Positions 1,966 through 59,107 of a stretch of DNA of 64,000 nucleotides are shown here, one piece after another; the stretch's first letter is position 1; each line of letters starts with the position of its first letter. Source of the DNA: Escherichia coli (lineage in GTDB: Bacteria; Pseudomonadota; Gammaproteobacteria; Enterobacterales; Enterobacteriaceae); assembly GCF_001677475.2 (NCBI RefSeq), contig NZ_CP015229.1. One strand, written 5' to 3'. The translations under genes were made by a program, and so were the position numbers. Under the pieces are notes generated by a model. The model saw only the letters and a list, made by a program, of their open reading frames with translations. It had not been told where the DNA came from and did not search any database.

Positions 1966-2850
1966 ATGATTATGCCGCAACATGACCAATTACATCGCTA
2001 TCTGTTTGAAAACTTTGCCGTTCGCGGCGAACTGGTAACCGTTTCGGAAACCCTGCAACAGATCCTTGAGAATCACGATTATCCGCAGCCCGTTAAAAAC
2101 GTGCTGGCAGAACTGCTGGTTGCGACCAGCCTGTTAACCGCTACGTTGAAGTTTGATGGTGATATCACTGTACAGCTGCAAGGCGACGGTCCGATGAATC
2201 TGGCGGTTATTAACGGTAACAACAACCAGCAGATGCGCGGTGTGGCGCGCGTGCAGGGCGAAATTCCAGAAAATGCCGACCTGAAAACGCTGGTCGGCAA
2301 TGGTTACGTGGTGATCACCATTACCCCGAGCGAAGGCGAACGCTATCAGGGCGTGGTTGGTCTGGAAGGTGATACCCTGGCGGCCTGCCTGGAAGATTAC
2401 TTTATGCGTTCTGAACAGCTGCCGACGCGCCTGTTTATTCGCACCGGCGACGTAGACGGCAAACCGGCTGCAGGCGGTATGTTGTTGCAGGTAATGCCTG
2501 CGCAAAATGCCCAGCAGGACGACTTTGACCACCTGGCAACGCTAACCGAAACCATCAAAACCGAAGAACTGCTGACCTTACCGGCAAACGAAGTGTTGTG
2601 GCGTTTGTATCACGAAGAAGAGGTGACGGTTTACGATCCGCAGGATGTGGAGTTCAAATGCACCTGCTCGCGTGAACGTTGCGCCGATGCGCTGAAAACG
2701 CTGCCTGATGAAGAAGTCGATAGCATCCTGGCGGAAGATGGCGAAATTGACATGCATTGTGATTACTGCGGTAACCACTATCTGTTCAATGCGATGGATA
2801 TTGCTGAAATCCGCAACAACGCGTCTCCGGCAGATCCGCAAGTTCATTAA
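1966..2850 (+). CDS. hslO: Redox-regulated chaperone Hsp33
   Basis: 294-aa ORF; C-terminal zinc centre CTCSRERC ... CDYCGNHY places Cys at 232/234/265/268 when counted from MIMPQ. Confidence 0.95.
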
Positions 2851-9649: not shown

Positions 9650-11971
9650 ATGATGAATGATTCGTTCTGCCGCATTATTGCGGGTGAAATTCAGGCGCGC
9701 CCGGAACAGGTTGAAGCCGCCGTTCGCCTGCTTGACGAAGGGAATACCGTGCCGTTTATCGCACGTTATCGTAAGGAAATCACCGGCGGTCTGGATGACA
9801 CGCAGTTGCGTAATCTGGAAACGCGTCTGAGCTACCTGCGCGAGCTGGAAGAGAGACGTCAGGCGATCCTCAAGTCCATTTCTGAGCAAGGTAAACTCAC
9901 CGATGAGCTGGCGAATGCCATCAACGCCACCTTAAGCAAAACCGAACTCGAAGACCTCTATCTGCCCTACAAACCTAAACGCCGCACCCGTGGGCAAATC
10001 GCCATTGAAGCAGGTCTTGAGCCGTTGGCTGACCTGCTGTGGAGCGATCCGTCACACACGCCAGAAGTCGCCGCTGCACAATATGTTGATGCCGATAAAG
10101 GCGTGGCAGATACCAAAGCTGCGCTGGACGGCGCGCGCTATATCCTGATGGAACGGTTTGCCGAAGATGCCGCGCTGCTGGCAAAAGTGCGTGATTATCT
10201 GTGGAAGAACGCGCATTTGGTTTCTACGGTGGTGAGCGGTAAAGAAGAGGAAGGGGCGAAATTCCGCGACTATTTCGATCATCACGAACCGCTGTCAACG
10301 GTGCCTTCTCACCGCGCGCTGGCGATGTTCCGTGGGCGTAACGAAGGCATACTCCAGCTTTCGCTGAATGCCGATCCACAGTTCGATGAGCCGCCGAAAG
10401 AGAGCTATTGCGAGCAAATCATCATGGATCATCTCGGCCTGCGCCTGAACAATGCCCCGGCGGATAGCTGGCGCAAAGGCGTGGTGAGCTGGACGTGGCG
10501 CATCAAGGTGCTGATGCATCTGGAAACCGAACTGATGGGCACCGTGCGCGAACGTGCGGAAGATGAAGCAATCAACGTCTTTGCCCGTAACCTGCACGAT
10601 CTGCTGATGGCGGCCCCAGCCGGACTGCGTGCCACGATGGGCCTCGATCCGGGTCTGCGTACTGGGGTAAAAGTGGCGGTAGTCGATGCAACCGGCAAAC
10701 TGGTGGCGACCGACACCATTTACCCGCACACCGGACAAGCCGCAAAAGCAGCGATGACCGTTGCTGCCCTGTGTGAAAAGCATAATGTTGAACTGGTGGC
10801 GATCGGCAACGGTACAGCTTCCCGCGAAACTGAGCGTTTCTATCTCGATGTCCAGAAACAGTTCCCAAAAGTGACCGCGCAGAAAGTGATCGTCAGCGAA
10901 GCAGGCGCGTCGGTTTACTCGGCTTCAGAGCTGGCTGCACAGGAGTTCCCGGATCTCGACGTTTCGCTGCGTGGCGCGGTGTCTATCGCCCGCCGTTTGC
11001 AAGATCCGCTGGCGGAGCTGGTGAAAATCGATCCGAAATCTATCGGCGTAGGTCAGTATCAGCATGACGTCAGCCAGACGCAGCTGGCACGCAAACTGGA
11101 TGCAGTAGTAGAAGACTGCGTAAACGCTGTTGGCGTCGATCTCAACACCGCTTCTGTTCCGCTGTTAACCCGCGTGGCGGGCCTGACGCGCATGATGGCG
11201 CAAAACATCGTGGCCTGGCGCGATGAGAACGGTCAGTTCCAGAACCGTCAGCAACTGCTGAAAGTGAGCCGTCTGGGGCCGAAAGCCTTCGAGCAGTGCG
11301 CGGGCTTCCTGCGGATTAACCACGGCGATAACCCGCTTGACGCCTCTACCGTTCACCCGGAAGCCTATCCGGTGGTGGAACGCATTCTGGCAGCAACACA
11401 GCAGGCACTGAAAGATCTGATGGGTAACAGCAGCGAGCTGCGTAACCTGAAAGCGTCTGACTTTACTGATGAAAAATTCGGTGTACCGACGGTAACTGAC
11501 ATCATCAAAGAGCTGGAAAAACCGGGTCGCGATCCGCGTCCGGAATTTAAAACCGCTCAGTTTGCCGATGGCGTCGAGACAATGAACGACCTGCAACCGG
11601 GTATGATCCTCGAAGGCGCAGTGACCAACGTCACCAACTTTGGCGCGTTTGTCGATATCGGCGTGCATCAGGACGGCCTGGTTCACATCTCTTCATTGTC
11701 GAATAAGTTTGTGGAAGATCCGCATACCGTGGTGAAAGCGGGCGATATTGTGAAGGTGAAAGTGCTGGAAGTGGATCTTCAGCGTAAACGTATCGCCCTG
11801 ACCATGCGTCTGGACGAGCAGCCTGGCGAAACCAACGCGCGTCGCGGCGGCGGGAATGAACGTCCGCAAAACAACCGCCCGGCAGCCAAACCGCGTGGGC
11901 GTGAAGCGCAGCCTGCCGGTAACAGCGCGATGATGGATGCGCTGGCGGCGGCAATGGGCAAAAAACGTTAA
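9650..11971 (+). CDS. tex: Tex/YhgF transcription accessory protein (S1 domain, YqgF/RNase H-like and HhH domains)
   Basis: 773-aa ORF; C-terminal S1 domain ([21 protein letters not shown]). Confidence 0.95.
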
Positions 11972-11995: not shown

Positions 11996-12027
11996 CTGCC
12001 AGATAAGGCGTTCACGCCGCATCTGGC
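11996..12027. repeat. REP-like palindromic element downstream of tex
   Basis: CTGCCAGATAAGGCGTTCACGCCGCATCTGGCA, REP-type imperfect palindrome. Confidence 0.55.
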
Positions 12028-12054
12028 AACGAACGCCTTGCCTGACATAAAAGT

Positions 12055-53298: not shown

Positions 53299-54294
53299 TT
53301 AAATAGATCCGCCCGGTGACAAGGTGAAACCTAAATCTAACATTTTCGGTGTCACAGATTCGCCACGAATACGCGCCAGCAGGCGTTCAGCGCCAATACT
53401 GCCCATCCGCTCACGCGGCGTCAGTACGCTCGCCAACCGTGGTTCCATCACCTGACCAATGTCATGACCATGGAAACCGGCAATCGCCATATCGTCAGGA
53501 ACTTTCAACCCCAGACGCTGGCATTCAAACGCCGCGCCGACTGCCAGGTCATCATTAGTACAGAACACGCCATCCAGCTGCGGATATTCCCGCCTCGCCT
53601 GGCGAATCAGTTCAATACCGGAAGAGTAAGAAGAAGATTGCTCAACCATCACGCTATATGGCACCAGGCCTGCATCCAGCATCGCCTGTTCGTATCCCTT
53701 CTGTTTGATGATAGTACGTTCGTCGAGACGTGCGCCGAGATAGGCAATGTGGCGATGCCCGCGAGCAATAATGGCGGTGGTCATCTGCCGTGCCGCTTCA
53801 AAGTTATCAAAACCGACGGCGATATCGAGGCACGGCGACTGGCTGTCCATCAACTCCACCACCGGGATCCCCGCCACTTCAATCATCTTTAAGGTGCGCG
53901 GCGTGTGGGTACGTTCGGTGAGGATCAGTCCGTCGATATTCCATGAGAGCATTGATTCGAGGCGTTCTTGCTCCATTTCCGGTTTATAACCGTAGTGGGC
54001 CAGCATGGTCTGATAACCGTGCGCGTCGGTGACGCTTTCGATTCCGCGTAATACTTCCGCGAAAACCTGGTTGGTGAGAGAAGGTAACAGGACGCCAATC
54101 GCCCGGCTGGTGGCGTTAGAGAGGATATCGGGCGCACGATTGGGAATATAGCCCAGTTCATCAAGAGCGGCGGCAATCTTGCCGCGTAGAGCGACGGAAA
54201 CCTGCTCCGGGTTGCGTAAAAAACGGCTGACCGTCATTTTGGTCACGCCTACACGGTCAGCCACATCCTGAAGTACGGGTCTTTTCTTTTTCAT
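53299..54294 (-). CDS. gntR: GntR, LacI-family gluconate repressor
   Basis: 331-aa ORF; N-terminal LacI-type HTH (VLQDVADRVGVTKMTVSR). Confidence 0.95.
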   Translation of the reverse strand: MKKKRPVLQDVADRVGVTKMTVSRFLRNPEQVSVALRGKIAAALDELGYIPNRAPDILSNATSRAIGVLLPSLTNQVFAEVLRGIESVTDAHGYQTMLAHYGYKPEMEQERLESMLSWNIDGLILTERTHTPRTLKMIEVAGIPVVELMDSQSPCLDIAVGFDNFEAARQMTTAIIARGHRHIAYLGARLDERTIIKQKGYEQAMLDAGLVPYSVMVEQSSSYSSGIELIRQARREYPQLDGVFCTNDDLAVGAAFECQRLGLKVPDDMAIAGFHGHDIGQVMEPRLASVLTPRERMGSIGAERLLARIRGESVTPKMLDLGFTLSPGGSI

Positions 54295-54517
54295 CGTCCT
54301 GAAGGTACAAAAGAGATAGATTCTCTTAGTTTAACACGGACGCCTCAGAACCTTCCCGGGGAAAACAGTGCTTGTTTACAATTATTAGATATACACTAAA
54401 TCAATTGCATCGCATTGTGCTAACGACGCGGCAAAACCCCGGAAGCGTACATCAGCACGCGACCGGAGCGAGCGAGGAAGCCTGCAAAAAGGCAGGCTTC
54501 AAAGATGCCGTTGAGTT

Positions 54518-55213
54518 TTAAACCGGCGGCAGATCGAACAGTAACACTTCGCTGTCGCTATCCGCATGGATGGAGATTGCCTGCTCATCCCAGATTGCCA
54601 GACCATCGCTGGTCGAGGCTTTCACGCCGTTAATGGTGACATTGCCTTTCACCACCTGGATCCAGACGCGGCGTTCAGCGGCAATCTGATGCACCGACTG
54701 CTCATCTTTCAGCAATGCCCAACGATACAGTTCCATATCCTGATGCACTTTCAGCGAACCATCTCGCGCATCCGGCGAGAGCACCAGCTGTTTGCCCTGT
54801 ACGGCATCGAAGCGACGCTGTTCATAACGCGGCGTAATGCCGTTTTCTTCAGGCATGATCCAGATCTGATACAGATGCAGACGCTCGGTGCTGCTTGGGT
54901 TGTACTCAGAGTGACGGATACCCGTACCCGCACTCATAATCTGGAACTCACCCGCCGGAACCTGCTCTTTATTGCCCATGCTGTCCTGATGTTCAACAGT
55001 ACCTTCCAGCACGTAGGTCAAAATTTCCATATCTTTATGCGGGTGAGTGCCGAAGCCCTGCCCTGCTTCAATCACGTCGTCATTAATCACGCGCAGCGCG
55101 GAGAAACCCATAAAGTTCGGATCGTAATAGTTGGCAAAAGAGAAAGTATGCCAGGAGTCCAGCCAGCCATGATTTGCATGACCACGTTCATTTGCTTTGC
55201 GTAAGTAGATCAT
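54518..55213 (-). CDS. yhhW: YhhW, pirin-like cupin (quercetin 2,3-dioxygenase)
   Basis: 231-aa ORF with pirin metal-binding His residues (HPHKDMEILTYVLEG). Confidence 0.92.
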   Translation of the reverse strand: MIYLRKANERGHANHGWLDSWHTFSFANYYDPNFMGFSALRVINDDVIEAGQGFGTHPHKDMEILTYVLEGTVEHQDSMGNKEQVPAGEFQIMSAGTGIRHSEYNPSSTERLHLYQIWIMPEENGITPRYEQRRFDAVQGKQLVLSPDARDGSLKVHQDMELYRWALLKDEQSVHQIAAERRVWIQVVKGNVTINGVKASTSDGLAIWDEQAISIHADSDSEVLLFDLPPV

Positions 55214-55335
55214 TTGTATTCGCCCCCTGAATGTTTTCGATGGGCTTAGTGTGGACCCGATCTGCCTGGGATGATAGAGGGTGAAAATTGACCCCTCTGT
55301 TCAAAAAAATTGAACTATTCGAGGGGCCATCAAAC

Positions 55336-56373
55336 TTACTTCGCGAGAGTCACTGTGGAGGGAGAAGCTTGCTCAAAACCGCGTTCAAGGATTTCCAGAT
55401 TGGTAAGAACTTCAGATTCCTTGACGTAATTTGGCGCACCGTTGGTGATGGTTTGGTACAACGCATCATAAACGCGCCCATAATCGCCCATTTCTGGCTT
55501 CATCTCTTCTCTGACCGTCACGCCCTCTTCATTGACATACTCCAGCACACCGACCGAATCATCCGCCGCGAATCCCGGTTCGCCCGGCATAATATTAGCC
55601 TTCAGGCTGGTTTCCTGCTGGTCGATACCGTATTTAATAAACGAACCTTTCTTACCGTGAACGATAAATTTCGGATAATCGATTTTCACCAGATGGCTGG
55701 TTTTGACGATGGCTTTCAGGTCGCCATAAAACAGCTGCGCTTCAAAGGTGTCGTCAGGATTGGCTTTATTACGCAGGCTGCGGATGTCATAAGCGACGTG
55801 ATCCGGGCGACCGAACAGAGAAATAATCTGGTCCATCGTATGCACACCAAGGCCATAGAACGCGCCATCCTGCGGCAACCCAGGTTTGGTTTCTGCCACC
55901 GGGCGGTAATAGTCAAAATGGCTTTCCACTTCGACAATCTCTCCCAGCTTGCCGCTTTCAATCGCTTTTTTCGCTGTCAGGAAGCAGGAATCAAAACGAC
56001 GATTCTGATACGGCGTGACGGTCAACCCTTTGCTTTTCGCCAGTGCAAAAAGCTCTTTCGCCTGCGCAAGCGTCGGGGTGAACGGTTTTTCGACCAGCAC
56101 ATTTTTCCCGGCTTCCAGCGCGCGTTTCGCGTACTCGAAGTGGCTGTCCGCGTGGGTGCAGACAACAACCAGCTTAACATCGGGATCGTTTAGCACTTCG
56201 TCGAGATCGCTGGTGAAATGGATATGGGAATAAATGGGAGCCTGTTCTTCCGGCTTCGCATGGCGACGAAAAATATGCGCGACATGCCAGCTATCCTTGC
56301 GGTTAAGTACATACGGCAGATGGTAACGGGTGGTGCTTTTGCCGAAGCCAATAAAGGCGCAGTTGATGACCAT
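55336..56373 (-). CDS. yhhX: YhhX, Gfo/Idh/MocA-family NAD(P)-dependent oxidoreductase
   Basis: 345-aa ORF; N-terminal Rossmann motif. Confidence 0.92.
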   Translation of the reverse strand: MVINCAFIGFGKSTTRYHLPYVLNRKDSWHVAHIFRRHAKPEEQAPIYSHIHFTSDLDEVLNDPDVKLVVVCTHADSHFEYAKRALEAGKNVLVEKPFTPTLAQAKELFALAKSKGLTVTPYQNRRFDSCFLTAKKAIESGKLGEIVEVESHFDYYRPVAETKPGLPQDGAFYGLGVHTMDQIISLFGRPDHVAYDIRSLRNKANPDDTFEAQLFYGDLKAIVKTSHLVKIDYPKFIVHGKKGSFIKYGIDQQETSLKANIMPGEPGFAADDSVGVLEYVNEEGVTVREEMKPEMGDYGRVYDALYQTITNGAPNYVKESEVLTNLEILERGFEQASPSTVTLAK

Positions 56374-56494
56374 GATTTCGTCCTTTTTAAGGTGATTATT
56401 TACACCTTAGCGCAAAGCGGACGTGGTTCCTACTGGAGTGCGCATAACGAACACAAGCACTTCCCGTGGATAAATTGAAAACGAAAGATCAAAA

Positions 56495-56584
56495 AAAAGC
56501 CAGCACCCGGCTGGCTAAGTAATACTGGAAGCAATGTGAGCAATGTCGTGCTTTCAGGTTCTCCGCGAGGGTCTTCCTGATCGC
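56495..56584 (-). ncRNA. ryhB: RyhB small RNA (Fur-repressed iron-sparing sRNA)
   Basis: Minus-strand sequence reads GCGATCAGGAAGACCCTCGCGGAGAACCTGAAAGCACGACATTGCTCACATTGCTTCCAGTATTACTTAGCCAGCCGGGTGCTGGCTTTT, matching RyhB as I recall it, ending in a GC-rich hairpin plus U-tract. Confidence 0.9.
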
Positions 56585-56586
56585 GA

Positions 56587-56607
56587 GACAATAATAATCA
56601 TTCTCAT
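56587..56607 (-). promoter_or_regulatory. Fur box overlapping the ryhB promoter
   Basis: Minus strand AATGAGAATGATTATTATTGTC immediately upstream of the RyhB 5' end. Confidence 0.6.
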
Positions 56608-56705
56608 TCGCACTTGTCCAACACTTTTTGCAAAAAAATGCATTTGACTCGCATTTGAAAGTCAATGATGTTGAAAGGGACATTTACCCCAAAGAGGACA
56701 AAGGA

Positions 56706-57194
56706 ATGAGTGAGATAGTGATACGCCACGCAGAAACACGGGATTACGAGGCCATCAGGCAGATTCACGCCCAGCCGGAGGTGTATTGCAACACACTACA
56801 ACTACCTCATCCTTCGGAAGGCTGGTGGCCAGAAAGATTGAAAGATCGCCAGGGGTTTAAACAACTGGTTGCCAGCATTGATGGCATCGTGGTGGGTCAT
56901 CTTTTCATTGAGGCTTATCAAGGCCCACGCCGTAGTCATGTTGCAACTTTTGGTATCTGTGTTGACTCCCGCTGGCACAACCGCGGCGTCGCCAGCGCCC
57001 TGATCCGCGAATTGATTGAAATGTGCGACAACTGGTTACGGATAGATCGTATTGAGTTGACGGTGTTTGCGGATAACGCCCCGGCAATCGCCGTCTATAA
57101 AAAATTCGGCTTTCACATAGAAGGCACCGGCAAAAATTACGCTTTTCGTAATGGTGAATATGTCGATGCATATTATATGGCGCGGGTGAAATAA
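56706..57194 (+). CDS. yhhY: YhhY, GNAT-family N-acetyltransferase
   Basis: Track ORF 56628..57194; start at ATG 56706 (MSEIVIRHAETRDY); 162 aa; the N-terminal extension in the track overlaps the ryhB promoter. Confidence 0.9.
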   Translation: MSEIVIRHAETRDYEAIRQIHAQPEVYCNTLQLPHPSEGWWPERLKDRQGFKQLVASIDGIVVGHLFIEAYQGPRRSHVATFGICVDSRWHNRGVASALIRELIEMCDNWLRIDRIELTVFADNAPAIAVYKKFGFHIEGTGKNYAFRNGEYVDAYYMARVK

Positions 57195-57220
57195 AGAATT
57201 TGCAATATAAGTTTGTCATT

Positions 57221-57247
57221 TAAGCCCTCACCTACCGGGAGAGGGCT
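57221..57247. terminator. Hairpin between convergent yhhY and ggt
   Basis: AAGCCCTC acctaccggga GAGGGCTT inverted repeat in a 60-bp intergenic region. Confidence 0.6.
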
Positions 57248-57254
57248 TAAGATA

Positions 57255-58988
57255 TTAATAACCCGCCGTTAAATCATCCACCGAGCGCGGGTCAGATGCG
57301 CCGTACAACTCGCCGTCCGGCCCAACCATAATGCTTTGTGTGCTGCCCATCGCCTCTTTCAGCGCTACTTTCTGACCTTTTGCTTCCAGCAGCTTGAGCG
57401 TATCCGGGCTAAATCCTTTCTCGACACGCAGCTCGTCCGGCAACCACTGATGGTGGAAACGCGGTGCATTGGTCGCTTCGGCGACATTCATACCATAATC
57501 GATGCTATTCACCACCATTTGCAGCACGGTAGTGATGATCCGGCTACCGCCAGGGCTACCGGTGACCAGCCAGGTTTTACCGTCTTTCACCACAATGGTT
57601 GGTGACATCGACGACAGCGGACGTTTATTCGGCCCGACGGCGTTGGCATCACCGCCCACCAGCCCGTAAACGTTCGGTACGCCAGGTTTGGCGGAGAAAT
57701 CATCCATTTGGTTATTAAGCAGAATACCGCTATCACCCGCGACAATGCCCGTACCGAAGGTGGTGTTCAGCGTATAGGTCACCGCTACCGCGTTGCCGTC
57801 TTTATCCACCACTGAGTAATGGGTAGTTTGATTACTCTCATAAGGCGCAAGCTTGCCGGGGCGAATTTCGCTGGATGGCTTCGCTTTATTGATATCGATT
57901 TGATCGGCAATGGATTTGGCATAGGCTTTATTGGTCAGCGCCTGCCACGGCACTTTGACAAAATCCGGGTCGCCAAGATATTCCGAGCGGTCGGCGTAGG
58001 CGTATTTCTCAGCTTCAGCCATGATTTGCATCGCGTCGGCACTGCCAAAGCCGTATTTCTTCATATCGAAGTTTTCCAGAATATTGAGGATTTGTACGAT
58101 ATGGATCCCGCCGGAGGATGGCGGTGGCATGGAGTAAACCTGATACCCGCGATAATCGCCGCTTATTGGTGTGCGTTCGACCGCTTTATACGCCGCTAAA
58201 TCTTCTTTGGTGATCAAGCCACCGTTTTTCTGCATCTCCTGGGCAATCTGTTCCGCTATCGTGCCTTTGTAGAATTCGTCCGGGCCGTTTTCGGCAATCA
58301 TCTCCAGGCTCTTTGCCAGGTTCGCCTGCACCAGCTTGTCGCCCTTTTTCAGCGGCTCGCCCTCTTTCCAGAAGATAGCCTTGCTGTTTTCGTGGTTCGG
58401 CAGCACTTCACTGCCGTAGGTTTTGAGATCGTCTGCCAAAGCATCGTTAACGATAAAACCATCGCGTGCCAGTTTAAACGCCGGCTGCACGACTTTATTC
58501 AGCGGCATAGTGCCGTACTTATCCAACGCCAGCGAGAAACCTGCGACCGTACCGGGCGTGCCGGAAGCCAGATGCGAAGTGAGTGATTTTTTGCTGTCCG
58601 GGTTGCCCTGGTCATCAAGGAACATATCGCGGGTCGCTTTGGCGGGTGCCATTTCGCGGAAATCAATCGCCGTGGTGTTGCCATCTTTAGTGCGGATCAG
58701 CATAAAACCACCGCCGCCCAGATTCCCCGCCTGCGGATGCGTTACCGCCAGCGCATACCCCACCGCCACGGCGGCATCAACGGCATTACCACCTTCTTTA
58801 AGGATATTCACCCCCACCTGAGTGGCAGTAGCATCCACAGACGCCACCATCCCCTGTTTCGCGCGTACCGGATGAAAGACATCTTCCTCCACGCCATAAG
58901 AAACAGGAGGCGCGGCGGCGGCGCTAAAACAACTTCCTGAGAGCAGAGCAGCAATGGCCACCCGGCGTAAAAACGTCGGTTTTATCAT
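57255..58988 (-). CDS. ggt: Gamma-glutamyltranspeptidase
   Basis: Track ORF 57255..59015; start at MIKPTFLRRVA (signal peptide); catalytic Thr in QTTHYSVVD; 580 aa. Confidence 0.96.
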   Translation of the reverse strand: MIKPTFLRRVAIAALLSGSCFSAAAAPPVSYGVEEDVFHPVRAKQGMVASVDATATQVGVNILKEGGNAVDAAVAVGYALAVTHPQAGNLGGGGFMLIRTKDGNTTAIDFREMAPAKATRDMFLDDQGNPDSKKSLTSHLASGTPGTVAGFSLALDKYGTMPLNKVVQPAFKLARDGFIVNDALADDLKTYGSEVLPNHENSKAIFWKEGEPLKKGDKLVQANLAKSLEMIAENGPDEFYKGTIAEQIAQEMQKNGGLITKEDLAAYKAVERTPISGDYRGYQVYSMPPPSSGGIHIVQILNILENFDMKKYGFGSADAMQIMAEAEKYAYADRSEYLGDPDFVKVPWQALTNKAYAKSIADQIDINKAKPSSEIRPGKLAPYESNQTTHYSVVDKDGNAVAVTYTLNTTFGTGIVAGDSGILLNNQMDDFSAKPGVPNVYGLVGGDANAVGPNKRPLSSMSPTIVVKDGKTWLVTGSPGGSRIITTVLQMVVNSIDYGMNVAEATNAPRFHHQWLPDELRVEKGFSPDTLKLLEAKGQKVALKEAMGSTQSIMVGPDGELYGASDPRSVDDLTAGY

Positions 58989-59107
58989 CGTTATTCTCCA
59001 GAGATTAAGGGGCAACCCCAGCTAAGCCTGGTATATAACTCTGAATTAATCCTGATGATTGCAGGAAAGGAGTAAACTTAAAGAATATCTTCAGAGGAGG
59101 ATACGCG

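Follow-up and report, generated by a model that had tools for sequence, protein, structure and literature searches.

The iron-stress small RNA gene ryhB very probably occupies positions 56491..56584 on the minus strand of the 64 kb stretch of Escherichia coli chromosome analysed here (hereafter the window), with its Fur operator at 56587..56605. We place the probability of this reading at about 97%. Judged by its sequence, the feature is already known, being the ordinary and well-known ryhB of E. coli; since 2001-2002, RyhB has been one of the most intensively studied small RNAs of bacteria.

A sequence-only reading of the region had placed RyhB on the minus strand between yhhX and yhhY, with a left edge at 56495, and this placement is borne out by both a covariance-model search and an alignment to the K-12 gene. 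More specifically, scanning positions 54000..59000 with 4227 Rfam families returned one match, RF00057 (RyhB), at 56491..56555 on the minus strand. This match spans model positions 1-67 of 67 and scores 83.1 bits (E = 2.8e-15), well over the gathering score of 55. Across the whole 64 kb window, the Rfam scan gave no RNA match besides RF00057 and no second RyhB copy. Because the RF00057 model leaves out the 5' third of RyhB, the 5' end of the gene was set by alignment to E. coli K-12 MG1655, in which ryhB (b4451; alias sraI; RF00057) is annotated at NC_000913.3 3580922..3581016, minus strand. There the gene likewise lies between yhhX and yhhY on the yhhX strand, the same arrangement as in the ORF list of the window. 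The two sequences are identical at 94 of 95 positions, the sole difference being a terminal run of 8 T in the window and 9 T in K-12; since the alignment differs inside ryhB by this one T only, the gene can be placed with the ends given in the table below. The entire yhhX-yhhY spacer (56374..56705) aligns to K-12 over 333 columns with four differences, all of them at or after the terminator T-run, and promoter, Fur operator and terminator are also alike in the two strains.

Around ryhB, the minus strand of 56200..57000 reads ...TGGACAAGTGCGAATGAGAATGATTATTATTGTCTC / GCGATCAGGAAGACCCTCGCGGAGAACCTGAAAGCACGACATTGCTCACATTGCTTCCAGTATTACTTAGCCAGCCGGGTGCTGGCTTTTTTTT / GATC.... The left edge originally proposed, 56495, corresponds to the end of the 90-nt form of the RNA. 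Folded as a whole, the RNA is no more stable by minimum free energy (MFE) than its shuffled versions (z = -0.59); an unremarkable MFE is usual for a small RNA with a long single-stranded seed and has no bearing on its identity.

Table. Coordinates of ryhB, its predicted control elements, its neighbours and the overlapping or adjoining ORF calls, in window positions
Feature	Position	Strand	Basis or remark
ryhB gene	56491..56584	-	RF00057 at 83.1 bits and identity to K-12 b4451; start is the G at 56584
ryhB 3' end	within T-run 56491..56498	-	90-nt form ends at 56495
28-nt RyhB core GCACGACATTGCTCACATTGCTTCCAGT	56524..56551	-	RyhB nt 34-61; exact matches in other species
Rho-independent terminator (with the T-run, putative 3' Hfq-binding module)	56491..56516	-	terminator scan and MFE fold
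ryhB sigma-70-type promoter (predicted)	56591..56620	-	consensus scan, 10/12 matches; sequence identical to K-12
Fur box (predicted Fe2+-Fur repressor site)	56587..56605	.	3 mismatches to consensus; identical to K-12
yhhX, GFO/IDH/MocA-family oxidoreductase	55336..56373	-	ORF list; Pfam PF01408 and PF02894; downstream of ryhB, same strand
yhhY, GNAT N-acetyltransferase, 162 aa	56706..57194	+	divergent upstream neighbour of ryhB
yhhY N-terminal extension, 26 codons, TTG start (probably spurious)	56628..56705	+	upstream of the ryhB -35 hexamer
64-aa ORF (probably spurious)	56489..56683	-	runs through ryhB promoter, Fur box and whole RNA; mechanical ORF list
53-aa ORF (probably spurious)	56430..56591	-	TTG start in the -10 hexamer, upstream of the transcription start
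34-aa ORF (probably spurious)	56543..56647	+	antisense to the 5' part of ryhB and its promoter

The signals expected at both ends of such a gene had also been pointed out from the letters alone, namely a terminator hairpin with a U-tract and a Fur-box-like sequence at the promoter, and both are present. At the 3' end, the stem-loop AGCCAGC-CGGGT-GCTGGCT (56516..56498) forms 7 pairs, 5 of them G-C, around a 5-nt loop and runs into the 8 T at 56498..56491; the MFE fold of RyhB includes this hairpin. Across species the stem is kept by two-sided changes, with the arms reading GCCAGC/GCTGGC, GCCCGC/GCGGGC, GCCGGC/GCCGGC, GCCCAC/GTGGGC or GGGCCAG/CTGGCCC. Hfq binding requires the terminator hairpin to end in a 3'-terminal poly-U, which in K-12 RyhB comprises 9 U; in normal growth about 20% of polymerases read through the ryhB terminator, giving products that do not bind Hfq (PMC4509938).

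A T-run one T shorter than that of K-12 could be taken as the mark of a decayed or weakened ryhB copy whose shorter U-tract makes termination or Hfq binding less efficient, all the more as the length of the poly-U matters for Hfq in other small RNAs: a shortened SgrS derivative with 4 U was expected to lose binding altogether (PMC4509938). We consider such decay very improbable. In RyhB copies of other species the T-run ranges from 7 to 10, and because 8 is the commonest length (50/104), the run in the window can be regarded as normal. E. coli strain 755, E. coli L046 and E. albertii have 8 T as well, SgrS is functional with 8 U (PMC4509938), and all remaining bases of the RNA, promoter and operator are those of K-12. 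Apart from the ryhB terminator, the scan picked up a second, weak terminator-like hairpin at 56452..56468 on the minus strand, on the stretch from the ryhB terminator to the start of yhhX; it has 6 pairs (3 G-C) and a poor T-tail. It is probably a chance match; in the scanned region, 2 terminator-like sites were found vs 0.5 expected.

At the 5' end, the predicted promoter combines a -35 hexamer TGGACA (56620..56615) and a -10 hexamer TATTAT (56596..56591) separated by an 18-nt spacer, the latter lying at -12..-7 relative to the start at 56584. It is the only promoter-like site that the consensus scan detected in 56350..56750, and none was found on the plus strand of that interval. The Fur box GACAATAATAATCATTCTC departs from the 19-bp consensus GATAATGATAATCATTATC at three positions. 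This match is unique in the 64 kb window and had no counterpart in 100 dinucleotide-preserving shuffles (0 expected). The box occupies -3 to -21, counted from the ryhB start, and shares bases with the -10 hexamer, an arrangement expected where a repressor acts by occlusion. For K-12, Chen et al. 2007 predicted a Fur cluster (25.2 bits) with its centre at -15 of ryhB, and their gel shifts confirmed that Fur binds there; according to the same authors, the site earlier ascribed to yhhX is really the ryhB operator (PMC2189734). Because the site sequence is identical to that of K-12, these published data should apply to the window. The association between operator and RNA extends beyond E. coli: of 119 RyhB-core copies, 82% have a Fur box with at most 4 mismatches in the 80 nt upstream of the core, compared with a rate of 0.09% in 2230 control stretches taken from those loci. 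Fur control shared with the divergent yhhY was also considered but finds no support, since the scan gave no promoter-like site on the plus strand of 56350..56750 and about 100 bp separate the Fur box from the yhhY ATG downstream of it.

The region of RyhB that pairs with target mRNAs lies inside the 28-nt core. When one genome per species was searched for exact matches, this core was found in at least 120 DNA stretches from Enterobacterales, Vibrionales and Aeromonadales. Within E. coli, a 341-bp query (window:56380-56720), which corresponds to the yhhX-yhhY spacer minus the last few bases adjoining yhhX, is present in 5424 of 5426 complete genomes. The position of ryhB between yhhX and yhhY is conserved in Enterobacteriaceae: in about 50 fetched loci a yhhY homologue lies at most 1.5 kb from the RyhB core, and in about half of those yhhX is found as well.

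Other gammaproteobacterial RyhB RNAs, including the second copies in Yersinia, Serratia and Photorhabdus and the longer forms of Vibrionales, share with the window the exact core, an upstream Fur box and a Rho-independent terminator, but differ from it in 5' domain, length and genomic neighbours. Furthermore, whereas many of these species have two copies, the window holds a single RyhB of the E. coli type. Two exact copies of the core were observed in many species, from Yersinia, Photorhabdus, Serratia, Pantoea, Pectobacterium, Brenneria and Mixta, and Salinivibrio carries two in tandem, about 300 bp apart. Examples of such pairs are found at 10919-10946 and 11226-11253 of locus L061 and at 11696-11723 and 12002-12029 of locus L081. 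Most RyhB-core copies have a Fur box of their own, and the paired copies agree with known RyhB paralogues.

In K-12, RyhB has been described as repressed by Fur, dependent on Hfq and able to recruit RNase E; it pairs with about 20 mRNAs for iron-using proteins, as a result of which free intracellular iron rises ('iron sparing') (PMC4150767). From the identity with K-12 RyhB and from this literature, we infer the same mechanism for the window. When iron is plentiful, Fe2+-Fur would sit on the operator overlapping the -10 hexamer and block transcription. When iron is scarce, Fur would leave the operator, allowing synthesis of an RNA of about 90 nt that starts from the G at 56584 and is terminated by the hairpin and U-tract. 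Hfq would then bind this hairpin together with its 3' poly-U, and the conserved single-stranded core would pair near the ribosome-binding sites of about 20 mRNAs encoding non-essential iron-using proteins (sodB, sdhCDAB, acnB and others). Pairing would block translation and recruit the RNase E degradosome, so that iron is spared for essential uses. When iron is limiting, the RNA would be expected to repress sodB, sdhCDAB, acnB and other mRNAs in an Hfq-dependent manner.

Mechanical ORF calling covers this same region with open reading frames. The sequence-only reading had dismissed two of them as artefacts lying over RyhB, the 64-aa ORF and the N-terminal extension of the yhhY ORF. Both the 64-aa ORF and the TTG-started yhhY ORF are indeed in the ORF list, and their status as artefacts is supported by annotation, by Pfam and by the lack of conservation of the 64-aa frame. 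The yhhY extension itself, on the other hand, overlaps neither 56495..56607 nor RyhB nor the Fur box. Two further ORFs that do overlap ryhB, of 53 and 34 aa, were absent from that reading.

Several observations indicate that the ORFs across the spacer are mechanical artefacts that encode no proteins. No CDS is annotated in the yhhX-yhhY spacer in the K-12 record or in one PGAP record, and no significant Pfam match was obtained for the 64-, 53- and 34-aa ORFs, the sole match listed among the three being a RING-finger at E = 0.054 and 13.7 bits vs a cut-off of 27. We compared the 64-aa frame over about 45 syntenic loci. It runs to 64 aa in the window, to 95 in K-12 and to 91 in E. coli L046, because the length of the homopolymer decides which stop codon is reached; the 1-nt difference in the T-run alone turns the 64-aa ORF into one of 95 aa in K-12. 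In E. albertii its start is lost. In other genera (about 40 syntenic loci), the bounds of the open stretch differ in each genus while the RNA core is invariant.

It could still be proposed that the 64-aa ORF or another ORF of the spacer is a real small-protein gene, which would give the locus two functions, given that the 64-aa ORF is present with an ATG start and is open in several E. coli genomes. This proposal is hardly credible in view of the dependence of its C-terminus on homopolymer length (64, 95 or 91 aa), the loss of its start in E. albertii, frame bounds that shift from genus to genus despite the conserved RNA, and the want of a significant Pfam match or of a CDS in the K-12 or PGAP annotation. 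In addition, translation would begin at an ATG about 100 nt ahead of the point where ryhB transcription starts, and the frame crosses the promoter and the Fur operator; for that reason the ORF would need a separate transcript, yet the minus strand of 56350..56750 contains no promoter-like site other than that of ryhB. The RyhB transcript, as read from the sequence, contains no AUG. A dual-function RNA was likewise considered and rejected, as the transcript is without AUG and its sole UUG and GUG codons are without a Shine-Dalgarno sequence.

The product of yhhX shares 99.4% amino acid identity with K-12 YhhX. For yhhY, the mechanical ORF is TTG-started and comprises 188 aa (56628..57194, plus strand). 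The GNAT profiles of Pfam start at residue 30-32 of this ORF, equivalent to residue 4-6 of the annotated 162-aa YhhY; the gene is annotated as 489 bp in K-12 and in one PGAP record, and tblastn alignments of YhhY across genera extend over 162-163 aa. In the sequence itself, GAGGA and a 7-nt spacer lie directly ahead of the ATG at 56706. Because the GNAT domain begins only at residue 30-32, the annotated YhhY has 162 aa and GAGGA precedes the ATG at 56706, the extension is spurious, and on these grounds we take this ATG, and not the TTG at 56628, as the true start of yhhY.

These results are of value for annotation only and add nothing scientifically new. Automatic annotation and six-frame ORF tracks leave ryhB unmarked. 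In the RefSeq PGAP record of E. coli strain 755 (L001, NZ_CP183129.1), the spacer at 2516..2847 is 100% identical to that of the window and has no ryhB feature, whereas the K-12 record has one. Because the gene goes unmarked in the ORF tracks and in the PGAP record, ORF callers can put hypothetical proteins into the spacer or start yhhY too far upstream. The labels to use are ryhB with its Fur operator, and yhhY starting at 56706.

Beyond the spacer, the window differs from K-12 in its yhhY, a divergent allele with 84% amino acid and 83% nucleotide identity to the K-12 gene, and in the absence of the yhhZ-yrhA-yrhB island that K-12 carries beyond yhhY; neither difference touches ryhB or its control region. 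The first 95 nt of yhhY contain 1 difference from K-12, and beyond them identity varies between 65 and 90% per 60 nt. Nucleotide identity, which is 99-100% in the ryhB spacer and 97% in yhhX, falls sharply at about 56801. This boundary looks like a recombination breakpoint, located 217 bp upstream of the ryhB start, with the block formed by ryhB and the Fur operator on its conserved side. An altered expression of ryhB or yhhY, or an altered read-through into yhhX, relative to K-12 as a consequence of this boundary or of the 8-U tract seems improbable, and nothing in this sequence analysis supports a functional effect of either. At a threshold of at least 95%, the yhhY allele occurs in about 155 of 5426 complete E. 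coli genomes (best match 97.6%).

A variable island site adjoins ryhB, with yhhZ or Hcp-yrhA present or absent. After yhhY, K-12 has yhhZ, and strain 755 has an Hcp-family tssD and yrhA. In the window, yhhY abuts ggt (57255..59015, minus strand) directly, the two genes being separated by a spacer at 57195..57254, and the same direct yhhY-ggt junction is present in 1218 of the 5426 genomes.
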